DNA from: Eubacteriales bacterium
GTDB lineage: Bacteria; Bacillota; Clostridia; Oscillospirales; CAG-272
Direction of reading: 5' to 3'
Assembly (NCBI GenBank): GCA_045544195.1
Contig: JAZPYO010000034.1
Span: 82,881 to 146,880, forward strand
Length of the DNA stretch: 64,000 bases
In this document: piece after piece, positions 1,815 to 25,300 of the stretch
Layout: every line of letters starts with the position of its first letter
How positions within the stretch are numbered: position 1 is the first letter of the stretch
Position numbers and translations under genes: made by a program
The notes under the pieces: generated by a model
Told to the model about the DNA's origin: nothing
The model's input: only the letters and a program-made list of their open reading frames with translations
Databases searched by the model: none

Positions 1815-1858
1815 GTGCCGACTGAAGCTGGTAGCTTGAGTCGGCACTTGCTTTTTTA
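1815..1858. terminator. Hairpin terminator between convergent genes
   Basis: The GTGCCGACT...AGTCGGCAC 9-bp stem is followed by TTGCTTTTTT. It lies between the LUD gene (+) and the kinase gene (-). Confidence 0.6.
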
Positions 1859-3559
1859 TCTGTAGAATGTATTTCCGCCTATAAATTCACGGACGAGACT
1901 TGTCGGTGGTATCTCGTCATCAACATCAACGGCGGCTTGTATTGAATTGAGTATCTTTACCATACCTCTTACCTGATCGTAGCATTCATCCTCAGGTGTT
2001 ATCTCAAGAAGCAACGGATAAATGTATTTTTTCAATATTACAAGCTCATACAGCGTAGAGCTGTTGAAAATAAAATCTGCATTTTCTTGGAATGGGAATA
2101 TCCATCTTTCTTCGCCTCGTCTTACCGATTCCCACATTGACAAGGTTCTTTGAACTGATGCGCCGCGAGTTTCATAATCTCTTACAGTACGTCTTAACAG
2201 TCTTAAATAGCTCGTCGCAATACGGTTGTGATTATCGAGATTAAGCGGTATAAGTGGGCTTATATACAGCTTAAATATCGCATTTTTGTCAAGCTCGGCG
2301 GGGAGAAGAAGGGGATTTAAAGCGTGAAGCCCTTCGATTATTATGACAGAATCGTCATTAAGTCTCAGTTTATGTCCTTTCCATTCACGCTTTGCAGTCT
2401 TGAAATTGAAAATCGGAATTTCAACCTCTTCACCCTTTAAAAGCTGTGATAAATGCTCAGCAAAAAGGGAAGTGTCAATCGTGTTTATGTGCTCAAGATC
2501 GAGCTTTCCGTCAGGTCCGGGTTTAATGAGGCATCTATCCAGATAATAATCGTCAAGACTCATAAGTATAGGCTTTTTTCCGTGAACCCGAAGCTGTGTT
2601 GCCAAGCGGTTCGCAGATGTCGTTTTCCCTGAGGAGCTCGGCCCTGCAAGCATTACCGCCTTTGCATCACGCTCACATATCATGTCTGCTATGTGTGAAA
2701 AGCTCTTTTCGTGCAAAGCCTCATTAACTCTGATCAGTTCGCGTATTCTGCCGTTTTCAACAAGCTGATTCAGGTCCGCAACTGTTTCGCACTCCATAAG
2801 CTCACCCCATTGCTTGCCTTCGGTGTATACGTTCAGAAAGTTCGGCATTTCGCGGTAAGAGGAAACTCGGTCAGGGTCAAATACGTCAGGGAATATGAAA
2901 ATAAATCCGTCAGGGGCAGAGATGATGTCCCATGATCTCAAAAAAGATGTTGACGGCATCATTTCGCCGTAATAATAATCGCAAAAATCATCATATTCAT
3001 ATACATCTATCGTTGGAGATGTGCGGTATTTTAGCAGGCTTACCTTATCAAAGTCGCCGCTTTTTGTATACCGTTGAATTGCTTCGGCTGTAGTTATCCT
3101 TTTTCGTAATAAAGGTATATCCTGATCTACAATGTGTTGAACCTGCTTTTTGAGCCTATCGGAAGAAAAGTCGTCGGTGTTGCAAACTTTTATATACAAT
3201 CCTGAACCAACGGTACAATTCATTTTCCCCTGCGCTGACGGCCAAAGCTGTTTTATTGCAAGGAAGAGAATAAACTGAGCTGTCCTTTTATAAGCCTCTC
3301 TGCCTGTGGGATCCTTGTATCTGAGCAAACGGATCTTGCCATCCGATGCCGCCATTGCGCGCCGTATCGAATCACGGTCATTTGAAACGTCCTTTTGACG
3401 CAAGGGAATATAATTCAATGTAAAAATTTCGCCTGCAAGCTTTGCGGCGATAGGATCTTGTGATAACTTTCCGCTAACCAAGCCGAGCCGCTTTGCAAGA
3501 TCAAGCAGTGTTTCATCGGGCTGCGGAGAAATGCGCAGCCCATCAATGATCAATTCCAT
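1856..3559 (-). CDS. Uridine/nucleoside kinase-family P-loop protein with a long N-terminal (TGS-like) extension
   Basis: 567 aa. It has a Walker A motif (LAGPSSSGKTT) followed by the LMSLDDYY motif typical of Udk-like kinases. The N-terminal ~290 aa is an additional domain. Confidence 0.6.
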   Translation of the reverse strand: MELIIDGLRISPQPDETLLDLAKRLGLVSGKLSQDPIAAKLAGEIFTLNYIPLRQKDVSNDRDSIRRAMAASDGKIRLLRYKDPTGREAYKRTAQFILFLAIKQLWPSAQGKMNCTVGSGLYIKVCNTDDFSSDRLKKQVQHIVDQDIPLLRKRITTAEAIQRYTKSGDFDKVSLLKYRTSPTIDVYEYDDFCDYYYGEMMPSTSFLRSWDIISAPDGFIFIFPDVFDPDRVSSYREMPNFLNVYTEGKQWGELMECETVADLNQLVENGRIRELIRVNEALHEKSFSHIADMICERDAKAVMLAGPSSSGKTTSANRLATQLRVHGKKPILMSLDDYYLDRCLIKPGPDGKLDLEHINTIDTSLFAEHLSQLLKGEEVEIPIFNFKTAKREWKGHKLRLNDDSVIIIEGLHALNPLLLPAELDKNAIFKLYISPLIPLNLDNHNRIATSYLRLLRRTVRDYETRGASVQRTLSMWESVRRGEERWIFPFQENADFIFNSSTLYELVILKKYIYPLLLEITPEDECYDQVRGMVKILNSIQAAVDVDDEIPPTSLVREFIGGNTFYR

Positions 3560-3804
3560 AAATTTGACTCCGTTCTAAAAAAATAAAAGGCTGACACGCA
3601 GTAAAAACCGGTAGTCAACCATTAACGGTGGTTGGTAGAAACGCTTACCCATATTGTAAGCATATACCATCTGCGCAAAAAGCGCCTTGCTTGTTTATTT
3701 TAACATATTATTCTCACGATGTCAAGTATTAATTTTCGCAAAATGCCTAAACGTAGTGATAATTTAGAACAAAATGTAAATTCTTGATATTTTTACTGAA
3801 GGTA

Positions 3805-3833
3805 TTGACAAACCGTTAATTATATATTATAAT
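3805..3833 (+). promoter_or_regulatory. Consensus sigma-70/SigA promoter of the PqqD-giant-peptide-rSAM operon
   Basis: TTGACA (3805-3810), an exact 17-nt spacer, then TATAAT (3828-3833). Both hexamers are perfect consensus. Confidence 0.75.
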
Positions 3834-3865: not shown

Positions 3866-4149
3866 GTATGATTTTAAAACAACGTGTTGTGATAAGAAAC
3901 ATAGCGGGTGAATTCATTGCCGTCCCTGTAAAAGCAGGTCAAAACAGCTTTGAGGGCGTCTTGACGACTAACGAGGTAGGGGCTTTCATTCTTGAACTTC
4001 TTAAGAATGAAATTTCATTTCCCGATCTTGTAAATGCCTTGGCATCCGAATTTGACGTTGATGCTGCAACGGCAGAAAATGATGCTTTGCATTTTGTCGA
4101 AAAGCTCCGCCAAAGCGGACTTATGGACAGCGAGGGAGGTACGTTATGA
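3866..4149 (+). CDS. PqqD-family peptide chaperone (stand-alone RiPP recognition element)
   Basis: Pattern ...IAGEFIAVPV...VLTTNEVGAFILELLKNEISFPDLVNALASEFDVDAATAENDALHFVEKLRQSGLM matches the PqqD fold signature (LNxxaxxiwxll, ...eydvd...a..Dv..fl..L...gl). I chose the ATG at 3866 because GGGAG lies 6-7 nt upstream. The track ATG at 3838 sits only 5 nt after the -10 box. Confidence 0.8.
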
Positions 4150-4209
4150 GTTAAGACCTGTTGTCACAAAGATCATGGTAAGAAAAAAATTATTTTAGGA
4201 GGCACAGAA

Positions 4210-7200
4210 TTGAAAAAAAGGATCTTATCTTTATTTCTTGTCAGCATAATGGTGTTCTCGGCTTTACCGTTGTCCGCGCTCGCCGAAATTGCTGATAACA
4301 GCGAAAAAAATGATTCTACAACGTCTCAGCTGGCAGAAACTACGAAGGATATTCTTGACGGTGCTATATATCTGCCTATAACTATCAGAGACTTCAACAA
4401 CGACGGTATCCTGTTCGAGTATAACAGCAGCGGTGTAATTTATGGTAGTAAAATGCGTATCCATGGCGATAATGCATCACAGTATGGACCTCTCACAGAT
4501 CCTTCAACTGAAAATCAGTTTGAAAAGGGTGATGCATACACAGCTTTTCCGACAACAGCAAACATATTAAGCCGTTATTACGGCGATTTTTACCGCGGCA
4601 CATCAAATAAAGCACCAAATCAAACAACTGTTGTTTATAATGCTGACGGCAGCGTGACACTCAAAAGTGATAGTGACGCAATTGACCCTCAGCTCCATAT
4701 TGATCTCAAGGGCAAAACAAAATCATATTCTTATCTTGCAATGGTGTATAAGAATGCGAAAAATATTGTGAATGACTCCAAGGTTGACTGGGAGGTATTT
4801 CCTTACGGCGTTGTTGATATGGCTGCCCGTAGAAAAAGTGGAGAGTATAATTCCGGCGATACCAAATTGGTAATTGGATCTGACGACTGGAACATCGTAT
4901 ATCTTCCGATCGACACAACGGAGGCTATGGACGGTATCCGTTTTGACTGGACGACCACACCTAATGCGGAAATCACGATAGCGGGCATTTATCTTGTCGA
5001 TTCAAAGCCTGCCAAGTCCGGATATGATGATGCAGCCGACCTTATGTATGCTGAAGGCACAACATTCAGCGGAAGCCTTCCTGCATCGAAAAACGTCACT
5101 TTTGCGTTTTTCCGTTACAGAAACGCAAATCCTTCAACATCGGTATCACTCAAAGTTAACGGAACGAATTTCGGTTCAACAAATTTAAAGAATGATTCCA
5201 TGTGGCATTGGGGCTATATGCACCCCGCTGCAGGTATCAACAACGGAACGTCATATACCTTGACGTCAACAGGCAATATCGAAATTTCAGAGCTGTATCT
5301 GCTCAACAATGATGATGCAGCGGCGTTGCAGGTATTGTTCAGAACATCGGGAAGCGGTCAGATCCCTGAAATGCATGCCCTTGAGGATTCCAACCTTGAT
5401 ATTCCTACAAGCGATGCTATCGTAGCAAAGCCCTATTACGATCCTACTATAGACTATGTTTTGTCCGAAACCGATAAAGCTGACGGTTATTACACACGCT
5501 ACTATGCGCAGAAGGATAATGCAACGCTCAATTTATATGATTACATTTCCAATGCAACGTACCGCATTAACTGCGGTAATGGAGCGATAGGACCGAAGTA
5601 TCCGCAATTTATGCAGATACGCTATAAGGCTTCCGGCTTTGGTAATAACAAAGGATTAGTTTTTAATTATAAAACAAACAGGGGTGCGGGCACTTTACAC
5701 CAGAGTGGAGCAAGCTCCGCGGTTACTGTGGATGATGACGGAAAATGGCACACGCTCGTTGTTCCGCTGAATAAAAGTCTCGACTGGTATCTTTGCGATA
5801 TTTCAACTGTTCTTCCCAAGGGCGCTACTTTGGATATTGACTATATAAACCTTTTCAATACAATCGCAGGCGCTGAGTATTATGTGAAGGACTGGGATAA
5901 ATTAAAGGCTAAGTATAACAACAATTTAGCTGCTATTTATGCAGACCACTGGGTACAGAGTGTTTTCTCGTTTAACACCAGCCCCAACGCGCACAAAACT
6001 GAGGGCGGTAACGGCCCTAACTCATCAGGCGGAGAATTCTTCTATAACTATCCCTTCAAGAGCGAGAGCGAGGCTGGAAAGATTCAGGCTTCGCTCAAGG
6101 ATTCGGAGACTGGTATTTATGATTCTACAAATCAAGTGTTCAAATTCCCGAACACAAATCGCACCTCTGTCGGCGGTACCCGCGGCACGTGGATAGAAGG
6201 TCTTGTCGATAATAAGCTCGGTCCGAACGGTAAGCCTGTTTATAAAAAGGAAATTGTTGAAGCGATCGCTAAAGCGCTTGCATTAGCTTTAACGATTCCT
6301 TACGAGTTGCCCGACGGAACACGTAACATCAGTGCTCTTGCAGGCGGTCTCGTTGATATCGACGTGCTTTTAGCAAATTGCAGTGATGATCAAAAGAATG
6401 CGATAATAAAAGATAAAATGAACGGTGATACGATGTTTGATATGGCAGAATATCTCCGTCACATGATCAAGCTGAACGGTAACTCACACGATACGTACTA
6501 TTATACAGTCGGCACATATGACGAAACAAAAGCTAAATCCGATCTCAGCTTTGCAAACGTTTCAACATGTATGGACGCAGCATACCTGTTGCTTAACGGT
6601 CTTTGGTCTTCAGCTGACGAAGGCGGTTACGCCATCGACCTGAACGATTATACAAATATCGGTCTTGTTTATGATGAGAAAAATGATTGCCACATATTCC
6701 GTTCATCTTATGCTGGCATCAATTATGACAAAGAAAACCGCCTCATTTACAACACCGTGATCGGTGATAAGGTAATTGAGCCCTGGATGGTTGCTACAAA
6801 AACAAATATGATCGCATCAACTTCTCCGGCTTCAGAATACCGCTTCCTTTCGGGCGCTATTGCACAAAGTGGCTACGGCGTAACTCATTCGCCGTATTAT
6901 TTCACAGACTGTAACTACGCAAATACCACAACTATGACTCGTTACGATTCTGCATCTAAAACAAATTTACTTGACCAGGATCTTAACGTAACAAAAACCG
7001 AAAGCGAAGCACAGTTTAACGGTCTGTTTTACGGCAATGACAACTATAACTTTACAGTTCAGGGACACGGTGTGTTTGTTTTTGACTCGACGAAGGATCT
7101 TTTCTTTGAGTTTAACGGCGATGACGACGTTTACCTTTATCTGAACAATGAACTTGTTCTTGATCTTGGCGGTGCTCACGGCAGAACAGATAAGAGAGTT

Positions 7201-10200
7201 AAAGTTACAGAGTTACTCAACACAAAGGGCATTGAAGACGGCGAGGTAGTTTCGTTCGACTTCTTCCAGGCTGAGCGTCACGGATATGGCTCTAACTTCG
7301 CTATTTTAACCAATATTCCGATCGTTACCCCTGATATTGAAGTTGATAAGACTGCTGAACAGGAAAATGAAACTCCCGATACGAAGGATGATGCGCTTGA
7401 ATACAATGCAACGGTAAATCCCGACGCGCCGATTTCTTACGCATTCAGTCTTGAGAATATCGCAGAAAATAAGGAATATCTTCACAATTTCACGTTTACA
7501 GACAACAAGGCAAGCGTTGAGCTTTCCAAGGATTTAATTAAGCTGAACGATCATACAACAATTAATGATATTACCGTGACGGTAGTATATTATGAATATG
7601 ACGAGGCTGACACCAAAAAAGAGAACTTAGAAACAAGAAAGAAAATAGAAATAACCTACGGCAAGGATACTCCGGGCTGGTCAGAGGATATGTTAAAGCA
7701 GATCCTTTCAGGTGATATTCTGCTTGAGTACGATTCGATAGATCCTGATCATCCCTATCGCGGAAAAGGTCTTTACTTTGGTGATTCGATCAAAATATCC
7801 GGTATCAATTACGTATTTACCGAAGATGATAAAAAGGAAGGCTCATTCCAGAATACTGTTGTTGTAACTACAGAAACAGTCGATTTGACGGGAATAGCTG
7901 AAACATTGGTTAAGCAGGATGATTTTGTCGTTATCCTTCCGAATGATAAGATATACCTTTGGGCTGACCATGCAAGAACGTTCAACGTATCAGAATTCTT
8001 TATTGATGAGTCAATCGGTAGAATACCGTATGAGAATATCGGAAAGACTATCGAAGATATTTCCTATGCTGCTGCTGTAACAGGTGTCTCTGAAGTAACT
8101 GACGGTCTTGCAGCTACATTTACTACCGGTGACGACATAAGAACGCAGTCATTCACCGTAAGTTCCACAAAAGTAGGTTCACTTACCTTTAAGTACAATG
8201 TTAAGCTTACTATCACAGATACAAAAGCGGAAGAAGGCACCGAGCCTACTGTGGAAAATATGACATATACCGTTGTAGTATATACTTACGATGCCAACGA
8301 TATATCATTCGCTCTCGACTACGGTCTGCCGATGGTGGTTAACACCGATGACTATCTCAAGGGTGATACAGTTAACCTCCGCACAAACACCGCTGCTTCT
8401 TCTAAAGTTACAGGCTATGCAACTTCACAGGATGTTTCATCTCCTAAGAGTGAGGCATACGGTACTATAAGCGAGCTGGGTGCTGACAGTTCTATAACCT
8501 ATACCCCCATTAAGTTTATCGAAGGCAGAGATTACGTTTATGTTAAGATAGGCGTATCTGAGGAATTTGGTTCAAATACTCCCTATGCGGTTACAAAGGG
8601 TGTTGAAATGTGGAAGAAGGTTTCCTTCGTTCCCGCATCCGTTGTTTACTACGAAGAAAAAATAGGTGTGAATTACAAATCTCCCGCGCAGACATTTGAG
8701 CTTGACAATGTTAACAGAACGCAGTCCGCTGACGGAGAGCTCCAGTACGGTTATGACAATGCGTACAATGATAACAACGCAACGCAGTCAGGCAATTCCG
8801 ACGCAGTTCCTCCGCAGTACTACATTATCTGGTACAAGGAAATAATTCAGGCAGGAACAGGAACAGGCGGCTTTGACAACCAGGGTAACACATATAACTT
8901 CAGTAACAATTCCTACGCTTATATCAATACTAAATCCGATGCTTATCAGTCATTCTGGAATAATAAGACAAATAACCAGCTCAATGCTGCTATCGAATTT
9001 ACATTCAATGGCACAGGATTTGAGATCATAAGCTATACGAATTTGAATACTGCAACCGTAGTTGTTGACGTATTCGATGCTGACGGTAATAAGGTAGATA
9101 CAAAGTACGTATTTACAAAGTACACCAACGGTCAGCTTCAGCAAGTTCCGATAATCGACTTTGAGGGTCTTACGTACGGTCGGTACAGCGTAAAGGTTTA
9201 CGCAGTTCCCGCTGTTGCGTCTACTGCAACAGACTTCTACCTTGACGGTATCAGAATCTTCGATCCTCTCGGAAAAGGCGATGACGGCGATTCTGCTCTG
9301 AGAGAAGAAACGTATCTTGAGAAGGAAAACAACGCTGATATCTTCGATATACGCGAACTCCTTCTTGCGTCCAACAAGGTTGCACTTGCCGGCACAAAGA
9401 TCGACGCTAACAAGACTGCATATTCTTTCATAGGCAACGGTACAACTCTTGTTGAAAGAAAGGGTAAGGGCCCCGGTATGATCGGCGAGGGTTATCTCAA
9501 TGAATCTATAGCTGACGCAGATGCATTATTCAACTACGCAACCGTTGGTCCTAACAACGAAATATACCTCAGTGCAGGTAATACAGTTGCAGTTCTTCTC
9601 ACCGCAAATGATGCTTCTTCCGCGAAGACATTCCAGGTTGAAGCTAAGCGTCTTGGCGAAACGAACTCATTACTTGCATACGTGGTTGTAGATGAAGAAG
9701 GCAACTACAGCTACAGACTTGCTGAGGTCAAGAGTTACACAGCAATGTATTTCGAAATTGACATTTCTGATTGTCCTAAGGACGAAAAAGGCAATTACGT
9801 TGTTATAATCGGTACAGCTCTCAATGATGCAGAACTCGATGCATTTAACGGTACGATAAGCCTTACATCATTCAAGGTTAAGGGCTACACAATGTCAGCA
9901 CCTGATATTTCCGTAAAAGCCACAACTGCAAACGCTGCATCTATGTCCGAGTTTGCAGAGATAGTTATGGAAGGTACAGAGGTAATTTCAGGTCATACAG
10001 CTAAGTATAACCCCGATCTGTATATCACGTCTGTAACATCTTCAGTATCTGCTACTGTTGGCGGCAAGGTTAAGTTTAACGTAGTCGCTTCGGCAGAAAC
10101 AACTGAAATAATAGTAAGAGACGGCAACGGTGAAATAGTTAACAGTGCAGTTCTTTCAGTAAGAACTATCGGTAATAACAAGATATTCACAGTTGAAATG

Positions 10201-10305
10201 GATGCACCTGCAAATGTAGGCACCTACAATTATGCAGTAGTTGCAGAGGATTCCGAAGGCAGACTGTCCGAAGAAGCACATTTCACTGCAACAGCAATTA
10301 ACTAA
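4210..10305 (+). CDS. Giant secreted protein (2031 aa) with a Sec signal peptide and a fibro-slime/PA14-like domain
   Basis: TTG start with AGGAGG 7 nt upstream. N-terminal signal MKKRILSLFLVSIMVFSALPLSALA. Fibro-slime hallmarks are ITIRDFNNDGILFEY near the N-terminus and FEFNGDDDVYLYLNNELVLDLGGAHG...FDFFQAERHGYGSNF near aa 960-1030. The C-terminal third is beta-rich and Ig-like. No LPXTG, dockerin or choline-binding anchor was seen. Confidence 0.75.
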   Translation: MKKRILSLFLVSIMVFSALPLSALAEIADNSEKNDSTTSQLAETTKDILDGAIYLPITIRDFNNDGILFEYNSSGVIYGSKMRIHGDNASQYGPLTDPSTENQFEKGDAYTAFPTTANILSRYYGDFYRGTSNKAPNQTTVVYNADGSVTLKSDSDAIDPQLHIDLKGKTKSYSYLAMVYKNAKNIVNDSKVDWEVFPYGVVDMAARRKSGEYNSGDTKLVIGSDDWNIVYLPIDTTEAMDGIRFDWTTTPNAEITIAGIYLVDSKPAKSGYDDAADLMYAEGTTFSGSLPASKNVTFAFFRYRNANPSTSVSLKVNGTNFGSTNLKNDSMWHWGYMHPAAGINNGTSYTLTSTGNIEISELYLLNNDDAAALQVLFRTSGSGQIPEMHALEDSNLDIPTSDAIVAKPYYDPTIDYVLSETDKADGYYTRYYAQKDNATLNLYDYISNATYRINCGNGAIGPKYPQFMQIRYKASGFGNNKGLVFNYKTNRGAGTLHQSGASSAVTVDDDGKWHTLVVPLNKSLDWYLCDISTVLPKGATLDIDYINLFNTIAGAEYYVKDWDKLKAKYNNNLAAIYADHWVQSVFSFNTSPNAHKTEGGNGPNSSGGEFFYNYPFKSESEAGKIQASLKDSETGIYDSTNQVFKFPNTNRTSVGGTRGTWIEGLVDNKLGPNGKPVYKKEIVEAIAKALALALTIPYELPDGTRNISALAGGLVDIDVLLANCSDDQKNAIIKDKMNGDTMFDMAEYLRHMIKLNGNSHDTYYYTVGTYDETKAKSDLSFANVSTCMDAAYLLLNGLWSSADEGGYAIDLNDYTNIGLVYDEKNDCHIFRSSYAGINYDKENRLIYNTVIGDKVIEPWMVATKTNMIASTSPASEYRFLSGAIAQSGYGVTHSPYYFTDCNYANTTTMTRYDSASKTNLLDQDLNVTKTESEAQFNGLFYGNDNYNFTVQGHGVFVFDSTKDLFFEFNGDDDVYLYLNNELVLDLGGAHGRTDKRVKVTELLNTKGIEDGEVVSFDFFQAERHGYGSNFAILTNIPIVTPDIEVDKTAEQENETPDTKDDALEYNATVNPDAPISYAFSLENIAENKEYLHNFTFTDNKASVELSKDLIKLNDHTTINDITVTVVYYEYDEADTKKENLETRKKIEITYGKDTPGWSEDMLKQILSGDILLEYDSIDPDHPYRGKGLYFGDSIKISGINYVFTEDDKKEGSFQNTVVVTTETVDLTGIAETLVKQDDFVVILPNDKIYLWADHARTFNVSEFFIDESIGRIPYENIGKTIEDISYAAAVTGVSEVTDGLAATFTTGDDIRTQSFTVSSTKVGSLTFKYNVKLTITDTKAEEGTEPTVENMTYTVVVYTYDANDISFALDYGLPMVVNTDDYLKGDTVNLRTNTAASSKVTGYATSQDVSSPKSEAYGTISELGADSSITYTPIKFIEGRDYVYVKIGVSEEFGSNTPYAVTKGVEMWKKVSFVPASVVYYEEKIGVNYKSPAQTFELDNVNRTQSADGELQYGYDNAYNDNNATQSGNSDAVPPQYYIIWYKEIIQAGTGTGGFDNQGNTYNFSNNSYAYINTKSDAYQSFWNNKTNNQLNAAIEFTFNGTGFEIISYTNLNTATVVVDVFDADGNKVDTKYVFTKYTNGQLQQVPIIDFEGLTYGRYSVKVYAVPAVASTATDFYLDGIRIFDPLGKGDDGDSALREETYLEKENNADIFDIRELLLASNKVALAGTKIDANKTAYSFIGNGTTLVERKGKGPGMIGEGYLNESIADADALFNYATVGPNNEIYLSAGNTVAVLLTANDASSAKTFQVEAKRLGETNSLLAYVVVDEEGNYSYRLAEVKSYTAMYFEIDISDCPKDEKGNYVVIIGTALNDAELDAFNGTISLTSFKVKGYTMSAPDISVKATTANAASMSEFAEIVMEGTEVISGHTAKYNPDLYITSVTSSVSATVGGKVKFNVVASAETTEIIVRDGNGEIVNSAVLSVRTIGNNKIFTVEMDAPANVGTYNYAVVAEDSEGRLSEEAHFTATAIN

Positions 10306-10319
10306 GGAGGTAAATAAAA

Positions 10320-10544
10320 ATGAATAACACCAAAAGATCATACACTACTCCTTATTTAAATGTGGAAAAGTTTGAGCTCAGCAGGTCGATATCTTCAACA
10401 TGTGATGCCGATCCTGTTGTGCAGGACTTCAAAACAGCAGGATATTTCGGTTCTGTTGATGGTTGCGAATATCCTATGTCTGAATATCAAGGTGTAGAAA
10501 AGCCGTGCTACCACACTGTAAACGCTGTTTTCACATCTGTTTGA
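10320..10544 (+). CDS. Small acidic Cys/aromatic-rich protein (74 aa), candidate radical-SAM-modified precursor peptide
   Basis: AGGAGG lies 8 nt upstream and overlaps the stop of the giant gene. Its stop is 4 nt before the rSAM ATG. It has 3 Cys (STCDAD, DGCEYP, KPCYHT) and 10 Tyr/Phe. No signal peptide or double-glycine motif was seen. Confidence 0.6.
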   Translation: MNNTKRSYTTPYLNVEKFELSRSISSTCDADPVVQDFKTAGYFGSVDGCEYPMSEYQGVEKPCYHTVNAVFTSV

Positions 10545-10548
10545 TATA

Positions 10549-11625
10549 ATGTTTATTAAAAAACAAATATTGTCTAAAGCGGCAAAGCTCAAAAACCCCG
10601 TTAGCGGGGTTTTTGAGTTAACGCCAAGATGTAATTTTAATTGCCGTATGTGCTATATCAAAATGCAAGAGGATGAAGTGAAGGCACTCGGCGGTGAGCT
10701 GACCATTAATGACTGGATGGCTATATGCGATGACGCTTACGAAAACGGTATGCTTTATCTTTTGCTTACAGGCGGTGAAGTGTTTCTCCTTGAGGATTTT
10801 CCCGTTCTGTACCGCCACGCATATGAAAAGGGAATTATCCTTTCGATAAATTCCAACGGTTCGCTTATTACAGATTCACACCTGCAAATGCTTAAGGAAA
10901 TGCCGCCCGAGAAGATAAATATAACTCTCTACGGCGATAGTCCCGAAATGTACGGTAAGCTCTGTAATAATCCAAATGCATATAAGACGGTCACAGAAAA
11001 CATTTTGAAGCTCAAGGATAATGGAATAAGAGTTTCTCTCAATTGCTCGCTCACACGCCTTAACGCAGGATCTCTTGACAATCTAATTGATTTTGCACTC
11101 AAAAATGAGTTACCTATCAACATTGCAACGTATATGTTCCCTCCGATGCGTAATGGTTGCTCGGAATACGAAAGCATCCGTTTATCTGCTGAGGAATGCG
11201 GTAAAATACGTGCATATCTCGATTACCGAGATGAATCATCGAGAGATAAAAAGAAGCAGTTGATCGCTGACGGAGCTAAGATAGACAGATTGAATGTAGA
11301 ATGCCCCGAAAGCGGCACAAAGTGTATGGCGGGGCGATGCAGCTTCTGGATGACCTGGCAAGGAAAAATGTCAGCTTGCGGTATGTTTGCTGATACGGTT
11401 GATTATAAGATCGGAAATTTTGACCGTGCCTGGTCGCAAATCGTTGAAAAAACTAATCTTATCACATATCCCGATGAGTGCAATGAATGTAAATACGGCA
11501 CATTATGCACTTGTTGTGCGGCAATTAACTTTGCGGAAGGTGGGGCTTTTAATGCCGTTCCGAAATTCTTCTGTGATATGACAGATGCATACATCAAGGA
11601 ATTTGAACGTCTTAGCAGTATGTAA
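10549..11625 (+). CDS. Radical SAM enzyme with a C-terminal SPASM/twitch-like auxiliary Fe-S domain (putative peptide maturase)
   Basis: CNFNCRMCY gives the CX3CX2C motif at aa 28-35, and LLTGGEVFL is a SAM-binding GGE motif. C-terminal Cys clusters are CPESGTKCMAGRC...QGKMSAC (Gx4C) and CNECKYGTLCTCC (CX2CX5CX1-2C). No N-terminal RRE and no obvious SD. Confidence 0.8.
   Translation: MFIKKQILSKAAKLKNPVSGVFELTPRCNFNCRMCYIKMQEDEVKALGGELTINDWMAICDDAYENGMLYLLLTGGEVFLLEDFPVLYRHAYEKGIILSINSNGSLITDSHLQMLKEMPPEKINITLYGDSPEMYGKLCNNPNAYKTVTENILKLKDNGIRVSLNCSLTRLNAGSLDNLIDFALKNELPINIATYMFPPMRNGCSEYESIRLSAEECGKIRAYLDYRDESSRDKKKQLIADGAKIDRLNVECPESGTKCMAGRCSFWMTWQGKMSACGMFADTVDYKIGNFDRAWSQIVEKTNLITYPDECNECKYGTLCTCCAAINFAEGGAFNAVPKFFCDMTDAYIKEFERLSSM
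10588..10617 (+). terminator. Terminator-like hairpin (putative attenuator) inside the first ~23 codons of the rSAM ORF
   Basis: CTCAAAAACCCCG-TTAG-CGGGGTTTTTGAG is a perfect 13-bp stem with a GC core followed by a T5 run. It begins about 45 nt after the peptide stop codon. Confidence 0.5.
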
Positions 11626-11640
11626 TTATTTATATAAAAA

Positions 11641-11673
11641 AACTCTTTTGCGTTATTGCAAAAGAGTTTTTTT
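11641..11673 (+). terminator. Rho-independent terminator of the rSAM operon
   Basis: AACTCTTTTGC-GTTATT-GCAAAAGAGTT (11-bp stem) is followed by a T run. It starts 16 nt after the rSAM stop. Confidence 0.8.
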
Positions 11674-11684
11674 ATGCGAAAGGG

Positions 11685-11731
11685 CGACTAAAAGTAGTAT
11701 AAGTAGGGGTAAAAACGACCAAAAGTAGTAT
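11685..11731. repeat. Two 16-nt direct repeats CGAC(T/C)AAAAGTAGTAT, 31 nt apart start-to-start
   Basis: Copies at 11685-11700 and 11716-11731 differ at 1 position. A third AAGTAG core lies in the spacer. Confidence 0.5.
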
Positions 11732-11802
11732 TATCGATATTTGGCGCAACATAAAGTTAGACTATTAATAAATTCAGGTAAGTATGTTTGATCGATTAGG
11801 CA

Positions 11803-11862
11803 CTTCACGATGCGTAGCATCCCTTCACGCACGCAGTGCGCTTCTCGTGCCGCAAGGCACAC
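11803..11862. repeat. Three tandem ~20-nt units, each CTTC(A/T)C followed by a 5-bp hairpin
   Basis: The units are CTTCAC-GATGC-GTA-GCATC, CTTCAC(GCAC)-GCA-GTGCG and CTTCTC-GTGCC-GCAA-GGCAC. A fourth CTT(AGC) follows and leads into the 21-bp terminator stem. Confidence 0.4.
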
Positions 11863-11868
11863 TTAGCT

Positions 11869-11913
11869 GAAAAGAAACACCATTTGTCTGGTAGACAAAT
11901 GGTGTTTCTTTTC
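11869..11913 (-). terminator. Long perfect hairpin directly downstream of tRNA-Arg (potentially bidirectional)
   Basis: GAAAAGAAACACCATTTGTCT-GGT-AGACAAATGGTGTTTCTTTTC is a 21-bp perfect stem with A/T-rich flanks on both sides. It abuts the tRNA 3' end. Confidence 0.7.
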
Positions 11914-11990
11914 TGGCCTACCCTAAGGGATTTGAACCCTTAACCGTCAGAATCGGAATCTGATACTCTATCCAATTGAGCTAAGGGTAG
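11914..11990 (-). tRNA. tRNA-Arg (anticodon CCG), 77 nt with encoded CCA
   Basis: Hand-folded cloverleaf. Acceptor CTACCCT/AGGGTAG, D-stem GCTC/GAGT, anticodon stem TCAGA/TCTGA with loop TTCCGAT (U33, CCG, A37). T-arm AAGGG-TTCAAAT-CCCTT, discriminator G, CCA. The C1:G72 first pair is slightly unusual. Confidence 0.85.
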
Positions 11991-12015
11991 AGAATTGATG
12001 CGTTCTTACGCATCA

Positions 12016-12846
12016 TTAATAGTTATCTAAAAAATTCGTATGCTCGCCGTTAATAGAATAACCTATTACCGTATTCAAATTAACATTGTGTGTGCTTTTA
12101 AAAATATTAGCCTCTATTTGAGGATAATCCTTTTTAATTGATTTTATAAGCTCCTTCATTTCGATACGCTTGGAGTTCATTATGGCATTTTCGTCAGCCA
12201 ACTGCTCTGTAAATCTGCAAGCGCATTGCAAAAAATCAAGCTCATTATAATTACGCCAAGCGATAATATCGTCTTCGCCAACGCAGTACATCGGGCGTAT
12301 CAATTCCATACCGGGAAAATTTGTCGAATGGAGCTTTGGCATCATTGTCTGATATTGTCCACCGTAAATAAGCCCCATAAGCACAGTTTCGATGACATCG
12401 TTATAATGATGTCCCAATGCTATTTTATTGCAGCCAAGCTCCTGAGCGAATCGATATAGATACCCCCTGCGCATTCTTGCACAAATATAGCACGGGGATT
12501 TTTCGATGTGCTCAACTGATGCGAAAATATTTGTATCATATATTCTTATCGGAACTCTGAGAAGGTCTGCATTACTTATGATCTTTTCGCGATTTTTTGC
12601 GCTGTACCCCGGATCCATAACGACGAACTCAAGCTCGAAGGGAATTGTACTATGGCGTTGAAGCTCCTGCATGAGCTTAGCCAAAAGCATTGAATCCTTA
12701 CCGCCGGACATACAAACCGCTATTTTATCACCTGCAGAAATAAGTTCATATGTACGGACACCCTCAATAAATTTGTTCCAGATGCCTTTGCGGAATTTTT
12801 TGTTTATGCTGCGCTCAACGAGAGCGCATTTGTCAAGCTCTTTCAT
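12016..12846 (-). CDS. ttcA: PP-loop ATPase, tRNA 2-thiocytidine synthase TtcA family
   Basis: It has the SGGKDS PP-loop and PCYICARMRRGYLYRFAQELGCNKIALGHHYNDVIETVLM, the TtcA-type CxxC/ALGHH block. Its start overlaps the upstream stop (TGATG). Confidence 0.75.
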   Translation of the reverse strand: MKELDKCALVERSINKKFRKGIWNKFIEGVRTYELISAGDKIAVCMSGGKDSMLLAKLMQELQRHSTIPFELEFVVMDPGYSAKNREKIISNADLLRVPIRIYDTNIFASVEHIEKSPCYICARMRRGYLYRFAQELGCNKIALGHHYNDVIETVLMGLIYGGQYQTMMPKLHSTNFPGMELIRPMYCVGEDDIIAWRNYNELDFLQCACRFTEQLADENAIMNSKRIEMKELIKSIKKDYPQIEANIFKSTHNVNLNTVIGYSINGEHTNFLDNY

Positions 12847-13712
12847 CAGAATCTGAAGCTGAATGTACCTGGAGCAATTTCAAGATCTACGTAATTCTTA
12901 TCGTTCAAATACTCGATCTCACCGTCAGCGCAGAAATAATTTATGCCGGATATCCTCGCACTTTTACATTTGTGATATATGAAGTGCTCTTCAAACTTTT
13001 TTATCGGCTTGCCGTTATGTATATGCTTGCCCTTTTTATATAAGCCGACAAGTGATAAAAATTTAAAGCGTGACAGCTTTTTTACTGCAAGCAACTCAAA
13101 TACACCGTCATCGACATTTGACTCGGGAGAAGCATTAAATCCACCGCCATAGTAAGTACCGTTTGCAGCAAGGCATAATGTAAATGAACCGTCATATGAA
13201 AACTTCTTGCCGTTTTCATCAACACATTCAATATGCATTTCCTGACCGAATTTTTCCAAAAGACGCAAAACAAGACTCAAAATGTAAGCCATGCTTCCGG
13301 AGATCAAAGGCTTCTTTTTCATTTGAGCGGTTTTAATTACAACATCGCAGTCAAAACCTATATTAAGTATATTAACGTAGTGTCTTGAATTGTTATACTT
13401 TACAGAGTCGCATCTAACGGTGACCTTTTCATCACTGTAACGCAAAAAGTCGTTACCTGTTCCAGCAGGATAAGCTGAAACGATCGCACTTGAAGCGTAT
13501 TTTGAGCCGATAATTCCATTAACGACCTCGTTTAACGTTCCGTCGCCGCCGTAAACGGTTATTTCGGCATTTTCTACTGTATCGCATATCTCGCGTGCGA
13601 TTTTTTCGGCATCCCCTATTGCAGTTGTAAAACGGTTATCGTCGGTCTCATTTGCGTATTTTCTAGCAAGACCTTGTCCTGCGGCGGGATTTATAATATT
13701 AAATCTTGGCAT
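12846..13712 (-). CDS. Diacylglycerol/lipid kinase family protein (YegS/DagK-like)
   Basis: The motif GGDGTLNEVVNG is the DAGK catalytic signature. 288 aa. Confidence 0.75.
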   Translation of the reverse strand: MPRFNIINPAAGQGLARKYANETDDNRFTTAIGDAEKIAREICDTVENAEITVYGGDGTLNEVVNGIIGSKYASSAIVSAYPAGTGNDFLRYSDEKVTVRCDSVKYNNSRHYVNILNIGFDCDVVIKTAQMKKKPLISGSMAYILSLVLRLLEKFGQEMHIECVDENGKKFSYDGSFTLCLAANGTYYGGGFNASPESNVDDGVFELLAVKKLSRFKFLSLVGLYKKGKHIHNGKPIKKFEEHFIYHKCKSARISGINYFCADGEIEYLNDKNYVDLEIAPGTFSFRF

Positions 13713-13768
13713 ATTTACACCTAAACAAAAGGGGCAATGTATCTTGCCCCCTTTGGCTCTTTAACTTC

Positions 13769-14650
13769 TTATTCGGCGGGCGTTTCGTTGTCTGCTTCTG
13801 CGGTTGTTTCATTAGAAACAGTCTTTTCCTGCAAGTCGAAAGCGATCTCGTCGCCGTTACTGAGAACTATTTCAGTCGCAGAAGTTGTTACAGTCACATC
13901 GTTTATGATGATCACCCATTGTTTATCTTCGCCGGCTTCAACATCACCGATCTTAACGATCGATGCTTTATCCTCGGAGAAAGTAACCGCCATACCGGAT
14001 ATTGCGGAACCTTGCTGTGTATCGATCTCTGTCTTTCCGTCCTTCTTTGCTGACGAGTTGAACTCGGAGATATTAAAGAGATTGTAAAGTGTAAGATCGT
14101 TCTTATCACCCATTATTGAAATGGACTGGTCGCTGATCAGCTTTTGTGCACCGTTAGTGGCGTTGAATGTAACGCTGATGGAACGATAAGTATTCTCTTC
14201 GAGCTTGAATTCAACAAGATCGTAGTTATTCAACGTGCAATTCTTGGAGTCCTCGACCTTGACGCCGTTTACATATACATACCAAAGGTACTCGACGCCT
14301 TGATCTGTGGTGCCTGCAACTTCATTTGTTATAGATTCAACAGTAACGTTGTTGCCTATATCTGTCGTAATAACACAGTCCTTCTTTCTTTCTGTGCAGA
14401 GTGTATTCAAAGCAAGGTAGGGAGTAGCCTTTTTGCCCCACTCATATTCGTGGTTCTCGTTAGGAATAACGCGTATCGCGTCAAGATATACGATACGTTT
14501 ACCGGCCTTATTGTAAACATAAGCCGATACGTATGTTGTGTTTGCAGTTTCGTCATCTGTATTTGAGCAGGATGCTAAAGCAACTGCTGAGAAAACGAGC
14601 AGTGCAGCAAATGCAAACGATAAGATTCTCTTTAATTTCATATTAAACAT
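13769..14650 (-). CDS. Lipoprotein with two DUF4430-like modules
   Basis: Signal peptide plus lipobox (AVALASC). The repeated pattern LWYVYVNGVKV...YDLVEFKL and QWVIIINDVTV...NGDEIAFDL resembles DUF4430. Confidence 0.5.
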   Translation of the reverse strand: MFNMKLKRILSFAFAALLVFSAVALASCSNTDDETANTTYVSAYVYNKAGKRIVYLDAIRVIPNENHEYEWGKKATPYLALNTLCTERKKDCVITTDIGNNVTVESITNEVAGTTDQGVEYLWYVYVNGVKVEDSKNCTLNNYDLVEFKLEENTYRSISVTFNATNGAQKLISDQSISIMGDKNDLTLYNLFNISEFNSSAKKDGKTEIDTQQGSAISGMAVTFSEDKASIVKIGDVEAGEDKQWVIIINDVTVTTSATEIVLSNGDEIAFDLQEKTVSNETTAEADNETPAE

Positions 14651-22309: not shown

Positions 22310-25300
22310 TTAATCAAACATACTGAACATCGATATTTGGTTAGTTTCTGACAATCCGTCAAGAACGCCATTCTGTTGCAGTATCTCAATAACAGCCTTT
22401 GATATTTTTGCTTTCTGTGAAAGCTCTTCAATGGAAAATATTTTTTTACCGTTACACGCTTCAGCAATTTTTTCCGCTGCCGTGTCACCAAGTCCCGGCA
22501 GACTCGAAAACGGCAATCTGATTTTTCCGTTCTCAGGTAAAAACGCGCTTGCGTGTGAATGCTCAAGACTTACGGGTAAAAACTTTATGCCTCTGCTTAC
22601 AGCCTCAAGCGCTAATTGACAAGCTGAATACTGTTCCTCGTCTTTTTGGCTTCTATCCTGCTTTTTGTCGATTTCGCTTATAAGCTCCTTAAGTGCCGAT
22701 TTTCCTTTGAGCGTTGCCTGGCTGTCAAATCCGCCCGGTGCTACTGTAAAATACGCTGCATAAAATTCCAGCGGATAATACACCTTATACCAGCCAAGAC
22801 GCAAAGCTGAAATAATGTATGCTGCGGCGTGAGCCTTTGGAAACATATATTTGATCTTAAGACACGATTCAATGTACCATTCAGGCACTCCGTGCTCGCG
22901 CATTGCCGTAAAATGCTCCTCTTTAAGCACTTTCGGCGGTTTGTTACCTTTACGGACAATTTCCATTATATTGAAGGCCATAGAAGGCTCAAGTCCTTTG
23001 TGTAACAAATAAACCATTATATCGTCACGCGTTCCAATAACGTCTGAAATCGTGCATGTTCCGTTTTTGATAAGCTCCTGGGCGTTTCCGAGCCAAACAT
23101 TTGTTCCGTGTGACAGACCCGAAATCTGCAATAAATCAGAAAAATTCTTCGGTTGTGTATCAACAAGCATCTGGCGCACGAATTTTGTTCCCAATTCAGG
23201 CAGGCCAAATGTTCCTACGGGTGATCCGATATCCTCCTCAGTAACCCCCAAAGGCTCTGTTGAAAGCAACAATCCAAGGACGTTTTTGTCGTTCATAGGA
23301 ACGTCAAGTACGCTTGTATTGGTGTATTTTTCGAGCATTTTGTACTTTGTTGGTACATCATGACCGAGAATATCGAGCTTGAGTATCGTATCGTGCAGAT
23401 ATTCAAACGCAAAGTGCGTTGTGACTATTGTTGATTTGGGATCATCAGCCGGGTGCTGAACGGGTGTAAAATCATAAACATCGTACTCTCTCGGCACAAC
23501 TATTATTCCGCCGGGGTGCTGACCGGTAGTACGCTTTACACCGACACATTTACTTACTAAATGCTGTATTTCTGCCTTTGTAACATCTAAATTCAGTTCT
23601 TCGATGTATTTCATAACGTACAAGCCGTAAGCGGTTTTTGACGCGAGAGTACCTATTGTTCCTGCTCTGAAGACATTTTCTTCACCAAAAAGCACCTCTG
23701 TATATTTGTGTGCATCAGCTTGTACGTCTCCCGAAAAATTAAGGTCTATATCAGGAGATTTATCGCCGTAAAATCCCAGAAATGTTTCAAAAGGAATGTC
23801 GTGACCGTCGCCCTTCATTTTTGTTCCGCATACGGGACAGTTTTTGTCGGGCAAGTCAAATCCAGAGCTGACAGAGCCGTCCTCAATAAACTCGCTGTGC
23901 TTGCAATTTTCACAAAGATAGTGAGGAGGTAAAGGATTTACCTCGGTAATATTTGCCATTGTGGCAACGAATGAAGAACCGACAGAGCCTCTTGAACCAA
24001 CGAGATAACCTTTTTCCTCGCTGTTTTTAACGAGCTTTTGAGCGATGATATACAAAACTCCGAAGCCGTTTGAAATGATAGAGGTTAATTCCCTGTCAAG
24101 TCGCTTTTTAACGATCTCCGGCGGAGGATCACCGTACATGCTTACCATTTTATTGTGGCACATTTCGGTGAGCTCCTCGTCAGCACCCTCGATCTTTGGC
24201 GGATAGTTGCCCTTCGGTATAGGTCTGACGTAACCGACCATATCAGCTATCTTATTCGGATTTGTGATAACTATCTCACGCCGTTCCTCATCACTCAGAT
24301 AATAAAACTCTTCAAGCATTTCTTCGGTGGTACGGAAATATACGCCTATATCAGCATCGCCGTCCTTCATCTTTTTGCCTGCGAATATTATTTTTCTGGC
24401 GATCTCGTCCTCTTTATTCAATACGTGTGCATCGCACGTCGCACAAACAGGTATATTCAGCTCATGACCGAGCTGTACTATCCTCTTGTTTATCTGTATG
24501 ATAGCATCTTCGTTCTTCAGCTTTTCACTTCTTATAAGATAACCGTTATTACAGAGAGGCTGGATCTCAAGATAGTCATAATATGAAGCCGTTTTTCGTA
24601 TGTCCTCATCGCTTCTTCCGTCAAGTATCTGCGAATACAACTCGCCTGATGAGCAGGCGGAGCCGACTATCAAGCCCTCTCTCAATTCATCAAGAAGCGT
24701 TTTGGGAACAAGCGGCTTTCTGTAAAAGTACTTAAGATTGGATTGCGAAACTATCTTATAAAGGTTCTTAAGTCCGGTTTCGTTTTTGACAAGCAGTACT
24801 ATGTGGTGCGGACGTCCTTTTAACTGAACTGAAGAAGATGAAATAGCCTCATCAAGCTCAGATAGGGTATTAATTCCCTCTTTATGCAGCTTTTCAGCCA
24901 TTTTTATGAATATCACAGCAAGCATTTCAGCATCATCGCAAGCTCTGTGGTGGTTGAAATCGCCAAGCCCCATAAATGTGGCTATTCTGTCAAGGGTATG
25001 ACGCTTAAGCTCCGGATTGACGTATCTTGAAAGAGCTACTGTGTCAATATACTTATTATTGAATGCAAGCTCGTGTACCTTTGCAGCACGCGAAATAAAG
25101 CCTACGTCAAATGTTGCATTATGAGCTATAAGTATTTTGTCTTCGCAAAACTCCAAAAAGCTGCTGACGGCCGTTTTTACATCAGGAGCATCAGCGATCA
25201 TAGAATCGTCTATGCCTGTAAGCTCGGTGATATTAGGCGGGATCTTCATATCCGGGTTTACAAACGTATTGAATTTATCCGTGACCTGTCCTTTTGATAT

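Follow-up and report, generated by a model that had tools for sequence, protein, structure and literature searches.

Peptide systems built around enzymes of the radical S-adenosylmethionine (SAM) type are usually mined for antibiotics. QhpC is a small leader-bearing polypeptide in which several cysteines are crosslinked by the cytoplasmic radical SAM/SPASM enzyme QhpD, and it forms a subunit of the extracytoplasmic quinohemoprotein amine dehydrogenase (PMC7876137). Lasso peptides have a conserved leader motif, Y-x-x-P-x-L (PMC10368454), and the C-terminal Ser of lasso precursors is phosphorylated by HprK-family kinases (PMC6993621; PMC10368454). Here, we analyze a gene for a 74-amino acid (aa) peptide, together with the radical SAM operon that contains it, in a 64,000-nucleotide stretch of an Eubacteriales genome (assembly GCA_045544195.1, contig JAZPYO010000034.1, positions 82,881 to 146,880 of the forward strand; hereafter, the window).

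We find that the peptide belongs to a precursor family that, judged from gene content across genomes, is new and has an unusual, obligatory pairing to giant surface proteins. The peptide is very probably the substrate of the radical SAM enzyme encoded directly after it. The first-pass annotation of this DNA had proposed it as a candidate for that role, and comparative genomics agrees: about 60 of 80 loci reached from the enzyme carry such a peptide, and the enzyme adjoins the peptide in all three loci reached in the opposite direction. The explanation of the whole that we favor, with moderate confidence, is that the peptide is a radical SAM precursor, crosslinked at its cysteines, that then serves the C-terminal module of the giant protein as a partner or ligand. 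Three features go beyond the first-pass annotation: the coupling to this module, a C-Y-[H/N]...F-x-Ser tail on the peptide, and an HPr-kinase-like protein, ScmC, that has been lost in the window clade.

The peptide gene is part of a four-gene operon encoding a PqqD-family protein, a 2031-aa secreted protein, the peptide, and the radical SAM/SPASM enzyme, with a promoter and a terminator as its bounds. PqqD-family proteins serve as recognition elements (RREs) for peptides that are synthesized on ribosomes and modified post-translationally (RiPPs). The features of the operon, including the Shine-Dalgarno (SD) sequences, are as follows:

3805..3833 (+), sigma-70-type promoter TTGACA-17-TATAAT; 12/12 consensus matches; implied transcription start ~3840
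3868..4149 (+), stand-alone PqqD-family protein (RRE), 93 aa; Pfam PqqD E = 1.3e-14; GGGAGAAG SD before ATG 3868
4210..10305 (+), giant secreted protein, 2031 aa; TTG start; N-terminal signal peptide; fibro-slime/PA14 domain at aa 941-1036
8257..9909 (+), module conserved at the C-terminal end of the giants (here aa ~1350-1900), from BLAST coverage and alignment
10305..10310 (+), SD AGGAGG of the peptide gene; kept in loci L002 and L001
10320..10544 (+), gene for the 74-aa precursor-like peptide; ATG start; TGA ending at 10544
10341..10358 (+), leader motif Y8-T-T-P11-Y-L13, then N-V-E-K-F-E-L; Y and P invariant in the family
10401..10403 (+), Cys28 codon, family Cys1; 20 residues past the leader Tyr; (nearly) invariant in alignments
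10464..10466 (+), Cys49 codon, family Cys3; invariant or nearly so in alignments
10506..10541 (+), tail C63-Y-H-T-V-N-A-V-F-T-S73-V74; one residue beyond the family-terminal Ser
10549..11625 (+), radical SAM/SPASM enzyme, 358 aa; Pfam Radical_SAM E = 5e-21
11633..11676 (+), intrinsic terminator, 20-bp hairpin and U run; -22.7 kcal/mol, z = -8.3, 0/200 shuffles as stable

The peptide gene, its family and its enzymes

The open reading frame (ORF) is as the first-pass annotation had described it, with an exact translation, cysteines at residues 28, 49, and 63, ten aromatic residues (6 Tyr and 4 Phe), and a 4-nt gap between its stop and the radical SAM ATG at 10549. It also has 9 acidic and 6 basic residues and no signal peptide. 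The SD sequence had been described as an AGGAGG that overlaps the stop of the giant gene, lies 8 nt from the ATG, and is the strongest in the operon. It does share one base with the TAA stop at 10303-10305, but the spacing is 9 nt, and the giant gene has an AGGAGG of its own (4197-4202, 7 nt ahead of TTG 4210). The peptide gene starts 14 nt after the giant stop, and the radical SAM gene lacks an SD sequence of its own.

The peptide ORF is under purifying selection. Between the window and its relative L002 (84% nucleotide identity), the ratio of nonsynonymous to synonymous differences (pN/pS) is 0.157 in the peptide frame. The two other frames, with 4-5 stops, give 2.8 and 1.9. The ORF is therefore a real gene. 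For the radical SAM gene in the same comparison, pN/pS is 0.235.

A direct search with the window peptide returns only five close homologs (85-96% identity), in all of which the three Cys are kept. The wider family was reached through the radical SAM enzyme, using 492 homologs and, in Clostridia of the gut and rumen, 80 genome loci whose enzymes are 36-64% identical. A hidden Markov model (HMM) was seeded from three peptides (window, L001, and L007) and iterated once. L001, whose enzyme is 64% identical, has the order PqqD-giant-peptide-radical SAM seen in the window; L007, at 38% identity, has the order giant, 81-aa peptide, ScmC, radical SAM. This search for homologous small ORFs beside related radical SAM genes, a check the first-pass annotation had suggested, yielded 66 distinct peptides in about 60 of the 80 loci, every one on the strand of the radical SAM gene. 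The three cysteines of the window peptide are conserved cysteines of the family: C28, C49, and C63 correspond to family Cys1, Cys3, and Cys4.

When 1.84 billion representatives (50%-identity clusters) were searched with a profile, 1,541 matched at E ≤ 1e-3 and 206 at E ≤ 1e-10. Among the 150 matches listed, all are stand-alone proteins of 68-109 aa, nearly all are matched along the whole profile, and none is fused to another protein. Read-through or fusion between the giant protein and the peptide was considered and rejected, as the two genes are in different frames (starts at 4210 and 10320) and there are no fusions among those 150 representatives. Family members that have a name in the source databases are called "hypothetical protein". 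No family model exists in Pfam or NCBIfam, and neither the window copy nor two distant members match either database (NCBIfam up to E ≤ 1).

The family has a conserved architecture. Its leader reads M-K-K-x-Y-x-K-P-x-[LIV]-x-[VF]-E-x-F-x-L-x-x-x-[IV]-A-x-x-Cys1. This is followed by a variable middle of 34-63 residues that includes Cys2, an aromatic residue, and Cys3, and by a tail of Cys4-Tyr-[His/Asn], 6-9 residues, and Phe-x-Ser at the C-terminus. Cys2 is missing in the window's subgroup. Among 190 unique family members, 187 have Y..P.[LIVMFA] within the first 25 residues, and in 178 of these 187 the offset from the leader Tyr to Cys1 is 19-20 residues. CY occurs within the final 22 residues in 185 peptides, and 182 end in Ser. 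Four is the most common number of cysteines; 36 of the 190 peptides have three or five. Mean pairwise identity is 44% in the leader, 22% in the middle, and 40% in the tail. The N-terminal leader that the first-pass annotation had suggested is consistent with this pattern, with its conserved start, its near-universal Y-x-x-P-x-[LIVMFA] motif, and its fixed distance to Cys1.

The window peptide matches the family in its leader (Y8, P11, and L13, with C28 at the usual offset) and in its tail (C63-Y-H...F71-T-S73). Its CY lies 12 residues from the end, and the CY[H/N] of the family 12-14 residues. It departs from the family at its terminus, S73-V74, and in having no ScmC gene in the window. The window peptide belongs to a divergent subclade. 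More generally, the family shows the marks of RiPP precursors: an adjoining enzyme that is co-conserved, and a conserved leader ahead of a more variable, Cys-bearing core. AlphaFold2 (AF2), run on a 30-sequence alignment, gives a mean pLDDT of 49 and no secondary structure, which is weak support for the predicted disorder of the peptide, a property expected of a precursor.

Two other readings of the cysteines were rejected. The first-pass annotation had likened a Cys-x-x-Asp context to ranthipeptide-type thioethers, but Cys1 is followed by A, G, S, or D, further positions vary across the family, and C-D-A-D is confined to the window clade. A role in disulfides only is unlikely because 36 of 190 members have an odd number of cysteines and the peptide has no signal peptide.

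The radical SAM enzyme begins directly with its catalytic core (C28-x3-C32-x2-C35) and has no fused RRE. Seven Cys that are invariant in the alignment (259, 277, 311, 314, 320, 323, and 342) form a full C-terminal SPASM set. No NCBIfam model reaches its cut-off, the top score being 79 bits against a cut-off of 400. In a profile search of the Protein Data Bank (PDB), the best match is SkfB (4e-23), followed by BlsE, PqqE, and SuiB, with the anaerobic sulfatase-maturating enzyme (anSME) lower. The AF2 model (pLDDT 89.7) is closest in fold to SuiB and anSME (TM-score 0.67-0.68), then to SkfB and PqqE. With the exception of BlsE, these enzymes act on peptides or proteins.

The top PDB sequence matches of the PqqD protein are the lasso B1 proteins TbiB1 and TfuB1, at weak E-values of 0.04-0.07, and its best NCBIfam matches are lasso PqqD chaperones, under their cut-offs. 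The automatic ORF call for PqqD begins at ATG 3838, inside the promoter -10 region. The true start is probably ATG 3868, since the promoter overlaps ATG 3838 and an SD sequence precedes 3868.

Pairing with giant secreted proteins

The giant proteins share a C-terminal module. In BLAST coverage, 50 of 54 giants span window aa 1600-1800, and the module carries the motifs F-x-F-x-G-T-G-F, Y-I-D-G-I-R-I-Y-x-P, G-P-N-N-E-x-Y-L, and L-S-L-T-N-L-K. Their N-terminal parts are unrelated: fibro-slime/PA14 in the window, and DUF5979, Flg_new, or VWA elsewhere. The C-terminal module has no PDB sequence match and no consistent Pfam match. The module (~500 aa, in more than 50 otherwise unrelated giants) appears to be an undescribed domain. 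No conserved Cys occurs in its invariant or nearly invariant alignment columns.

Forty loci have full context, meaning at least 9 kb upstream and at least 3 kb downstream of the radical SAM gene. In 35 of these, the peptide and the giant module are both present, and in the other 5 both are missing. Four of the five peptide-negative loci, which include L003 and L044, retain ScmC. Moreover, the peptide gene starts between -13 and +33 nt from the giant stop in 39 of 42 cases. The tightest unit is therefore the giant with the peptide, beyond the peptide with the enzyme, and the genomic data point to a strong link between the two.

Gene maps and neighbor clustering were compiled for 77 non-redundant loci. 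The components of the cassette, where GH20 denotes a glycoside hydrolase family, are as follows:

PqqD: 37/77 loci
Giant secreted protein, 700-2600 aa: canonical cassette
Peptide: 60/77 loci
ScmC-like protein, ~290 aa: 55/77 loci
GH20 exoprotein: one subclade
Radical SAM enzyme: 77/77 loci
Single-pass membrane protein, ~283 aa: 42/77 loci

An ATP-binding cassette (ABC) exporter occurs in 10 of the 77 loci, and an S24-like peptidase in one subgroup only. Look-ups seeded with the peptide show ScmC, radical SAM, and PqqD adjoining it in 3/3 and the giant immediately upstream in 2/3; a few cassettes have the peptide, ScmC, and radical SAM without a giant directly upstream. ScmC, GH20, and the ~283-aa membrane protein are all absent from the entire window (tblastn), and the window operon has no leader protease or exporter genes. 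The window carries a minimal version of the cassette, with four genes, from which ScmC and the membrane protein have been lost.

The ScmC profile matches HPr kinase/phosphorylase at the P-loop (1ko7, E = 0.007) and also, weakly, two kinds of NCBIfam model, ScmC and HprK-related kinase; neighboring genes carry the Pfam ScmC annotation. Of 57 peptides from loci with ScmC, 56 end in Ser. Peptides of the window clade end in S-V, S-A, or S-Y. The occurrence of terminal Ser with ScmC, and the lack of both in the window clade, fits an action of ScmC on the terminal Ser. Some loci without a detectable ScmC still have a Ser-terminated peptide.

Taken together, these observations suggest the following mechanism. 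The stand-alone PqqD would bind the Y-x-x-P-x-L leader as an added strand, in the manner of lasso B1 proteins, and present the disordered peptide to the radical SAM enzyme; this docking follows established RiPP logic. The fixed distance of 20 residues between leader and Cys1 could place the first target in the active site. The enzyme, with three [4Fe-4S] clusters, would then make intramolecular crosslinks at Cys28, Cys49, and Cys63. By the precedent of sactipeptides, ranthipeptides, and QhpC, these would most likely be thioethers from Cys sulfur to carbon. The crosslinked peptide would afterward act together with the giant protein that its mRNA also encodes, tightly bound to the conserved C-terminal module as a small partner or ligand. 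In the canonical cassette, the HPr-kinase-like ScmC probably also modifies the invariant C-terminal Ser.

Several points weigh against this mechanism. The main difficulty lies in topology: the peptide has no signal peptide and the window no exporter or leader protease, yet the giant is exported by the Sec route. PqqD resembles B1 proteins weakly (E = 0.04), as ScmC does HprK (E = 0.007). No acceptor residue beside the cysteines is conserved, which makes thioether chemistry a guess from precedent. The two closest folds offer other chemistry: SuiB forms a C-C bond (Lys-Trp), and anSME oxidizes Cys or Ser. The five full-context radical SAM loci without a peptide, four of them with ScmC, indicate that the enzyme can occur without an adjacent peptide. 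Finally, the tie between loss of ScmC and loss of the terminal Ser comes from one clade and so amounts to a single evolutionary event.

We consider it unlikely that the peptide is instead a free-standing RiPP, such as a bacteriocin or signal, made by PqqD and the radical SAM enzyme and placed after the giant gene by operon organization only. Antimicrobial sactipeptides and ranthipeptides do have this layout of leader, variable core, and radical SAM/RRE, an ABC exporter (10/77) or S24-like peptidase is present in a minority of loci, and the few cassettes without a giant directly upstream are of the kind expected. But such a product would leave the joint presence of peptide and giant module in 35 full-context loci, their joint absence in 5, and the narrow spacing of the two genes (39/42) unexplained. 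Exporter, immunity gene, and protease are all lacking in the window and in most loci. The tail is conserved across the family, unlike those of diversifying bacteriocins.

Somewhat less probable still is that the radical SAM enzyme matures the giant protein before export, in the style of anSME and its sulfatases, with the peptide as an accessory (a chaperone, adaptor, or metal-binding partner). PqqD-type RREs bind short leaders, and a conserved leader of just this sort, set at a constant distance from Cys1, is found in the small ORF. The giant module lacks conserved Cys in its (nearly) invariant columns, giants of different loci have unrelated N-terminal parts, and a second cassette in L028 has no adjacent giant. 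This maturation would be in keeping with anSME being among the best full-length structural matches (TM-score 0.67), with some relatives that have ScmC, a GH20 exoprotein, and radical SAM without a peptide, and with the place of the giant gene inside the operon, between PqqD on one side and the peptide on the other.

A role like that of PqqA in making pyrroloquinoline quinone (PQQ), or of MftA in making mycofactocin, in which the peptide is consumed and its C-Y-[H/N]...F-x-Ser tail becomes a cofactor or metabolite, seems improbable. The combination of PqqD, radical SAM/SPASM, and a conserved C-terminal segment follows the logic of those pathways, and the tail is as conserved as the leader. With the mycofactocin maturase model the radical SAM enzyme reaches 72 bits, and with PqqE 60, but these are far under the cut-offs of 265 (MftC) and 381 (PqqE). 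No conserved peptidase, oxidase, or glycosyltransferase that might finish a cofactor is found among the neighbors, and a tail-only product has no need of three or four conserved Cys across 35-60 variable residues. Lastly, a chance frame in an intergenic spacer, which the small size and the lack of database annotation might suggest, is refuted by pN/pS (0.157 against about 2 in other frames), by the 1,541 homologous representatives, and by the conservation of SD and start.

The crosslinked partner of the giant module thus remains the account we prefer. It is conceivable, if doubtful, that the family as a whole represents an unrecognized system, widespread in Clostridia of the gut and rumen, in which a radical SAM-crosslinked and usually Ser-modified peptide is the obligatory partner (subunit, anchor, or ligand) of giant surface proteins and is recognized by their conserved, uncurated C-terminal module. 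The suggestion that large exoproteins are matured or attached in a new way by such a partner system, which would then not be another antimicrobial RiPP, is equally tentative. If the peptide is a crosslinked partner, it would reveal how some of the microbiota's largest exoproteins come to be assembled or kept on the cell surface. The unnamed precursor family, with at least 1,541 clusters at 50% identity, appears to be tied one-to-one to giant surface or adhesin-like proteins, and its carriers are abundant gut and rumen Clostridia (Lachnospiraceae, Oscillospiraceae, Faecousia, and Dorea). Read conservatively, this is a new family of RiPP-like precursors that has a clear signature, and its minimal operon of four genes is easy to reconstitute.

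Genomic surroundings and variant cassettes

The window belongs to the core chromosome of a Firmicute that forms spores and is not a mobile element. It holds PolC and DnaE (22310-26776 (-) and 34923-38426 (-)), AddA/AddB, PFOR, topoisomerase IV, and SpoIID. A purine riboswitch aptamer (Rfam RF00167, 53 bits) at 3592-3689 (-), upstream of a 567-aa PRK/uridine-kinase-family gene (1856-3559, -), forms the left boundary of the radical SAM operon. A tRNA-Arg(CCG) gene lies at 11914-11990 (-), about 240 nt past the operon terminator. In L002, the protein genes after the radical SAM gene are those of the window (PP-loop, DAGK, DUF4430, and PBP), and in L001 the cassette lies in a neighborhood unlike the window's. 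The four-gene unit therefore moves as a block.

The cassette varies in composition. It is complete in locus L033, from the cultured Dorea acetigenes Sanger_03. Beyond the window clade, the nearest radical SAM relatives (46% identity; L003 6593-11086 and L004 1290-5735) have ScmC, a GH20 exoprotein, and radical SAM, with no peptide or giant module within 10 kb. In another subclade, GH20 lies between ScmC and radical SAM in cassettes that do bear a peptide. L028 has a second cassette (11522-14440) of PqqD, a long 132-aa peptide variant, radical SAM, and ScmC, without an adjacent giant of its own, and L050 and L060 have two peptide genes each. In L069, L085, L087, and L089, where the peptides end in "...CYHRPLD..FFSS", a gene for a ~136-aa S24-like peptidase directly follows the peptide gene. 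This peptidase is the sole candidate leader protease seen in the family, and the window is without it.

L089 also contains a second, different system on the opposite strand (6069-9760, -), in which a ScmC-PqqD fusion of 367 aa and an NTP_transf_5 nucleotidyltransferase of 408 aa are accompanied by a 57-aa ORF and a further radical SAM enzyme. This arrangement echoes the kinase and nucleotidyltransferase pair of pseudomycoidin-type lasso clusters. In the abundant, Faecousia-type subfamily whose peptides end in "...CYNNPSEGNYIFRS", the cassette runs straight into capsule/exopolysaccharide genes (L070 12178-16388; L036 12288-16670; L088 and L090 12.3-16.6 kb). Their products are a Wzz-like protein whose tail is rich in Tyr, a phosphatase (CpsB), an Ig-like surface protein, and a CpsD-like kinase.

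Comparison with known systems

No published description of this peptide/radical SAM/giant system was found in literature on SynChlorMet, on ScmC with radical SAM, and on radical SAM/SPASM RiPPs of gut Lachnospiraceae. The SynChlorMet (Scm) cassette defined in NCBIfam/TIGRFAMs resembles the one described here in bringing together a ScmC-like protein, a PqqD relative, and a radical SAM/SPASM enzyme. Nevertheless, the scores fall far short of the equivalog cut-offs (ScmC 26 bits against 125, ScmE 59 against 400, and ScmD 18 against 100), and the window has no ScmC. A literature search found no published description of the SynChlorMet cassette. The PQQ and mycofactocin pathways are likewise distant: the enzyme scores 60 against 381 bits for PqqE and 72 against 265 for MftC, and the peptide tail is C-Y-H...F-T-S-V, in contrast to E-x3-Y or a C-terminal V-Y.

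Sactipeptides and ranthipeptides (SCIFF, PapA/PapB) share with this system a Cys-bearing precursor, a SPASM maturase with two auxiliary clusters, and RRE-dependent recognition of the leader, and SkfB is the best PDB sequence match of the enzyme. Sactipeptide maturases of the AlbA, SkfB, ThnB, and CteB type, however, have a fused N-terminal RRE, and the enzyme scores 48 bits against 850 for AlbA and 44.5 against 300 for SkfB. On the ranthipeptide/SCIFF side, the peptide has no NCBIfam match at E ≤ 1, the enzyme reaches 46.6 bits with the PapB model (cut-off 340), and no Cys-x(n)-Asp/Thr acceptor pattern is conserved, C-D-A-D being limited to the window clade. Here, the RRE is a separate protein, and exporter and protease are absent. 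The cysteines are spaced ~15-20 residues apart over 35-60 residues, unlike the nested hairpin of sactipeptides, and are followed by a conserved Ser-terminated tail. This tail and the spacing fit neither class; for the spacing, the first-pass annotation had noted as much.

Lasso systems resemble the operon in the Y-x-x-P-x-L leader and in the stand-alone PqqD, which is nearest to B1 proteins (a weak similarity, E = 0.04). The canonical cassette is further like the paeninodin and pseudomycoidin clusters in having an HPr-kinase-like P-loop protein and a peptide that ends in Ser. In contrast, the B2 protease and the asparagine-synthetase-like cyclase are absent from the operon and from the conserved neighbors, and a radical SAM enzyme is found instead. 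The peptide is 70-100 aa long and Cys-bearing, and the window clade is without the kinase-like gene.

The nearest precedent is QhpC/QhpD, in which a leader-bearing small polypeptide shares its operon with large secreted proteins and is crosslinked by a dedicated radical SAM/SPASM enzyme. The two systems have no sequence relationship. QhpC is crosslinked from Cys to Asp/Glu, whereas the peptide family has no conserved acidic acceptor, and QhpD itself binds the leader, whereas a separate PqqD is present here. The qhp operon includes the QhpE protease, the QhpF ABC exporter, and the QhpG flavoprotein, none of which the window has. The partner protein also differs, being a dehydrogenase there and a giant adhesin-like protein here. 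If the peptide does act as a crosslinked partner, it would be the second example, after QhpC, of a radical SAM-crosslinked peptide serving as a protein subunit. By curated models and defining genes, we place the system as an RRE-dependent radical SAM/SPASM pathway, putatively RiPP-like, that lies outside the sactipeptide, ranthipeptide/SCIFF, lasso, PQQ, mycofactocin, and SynChlorMet classes.

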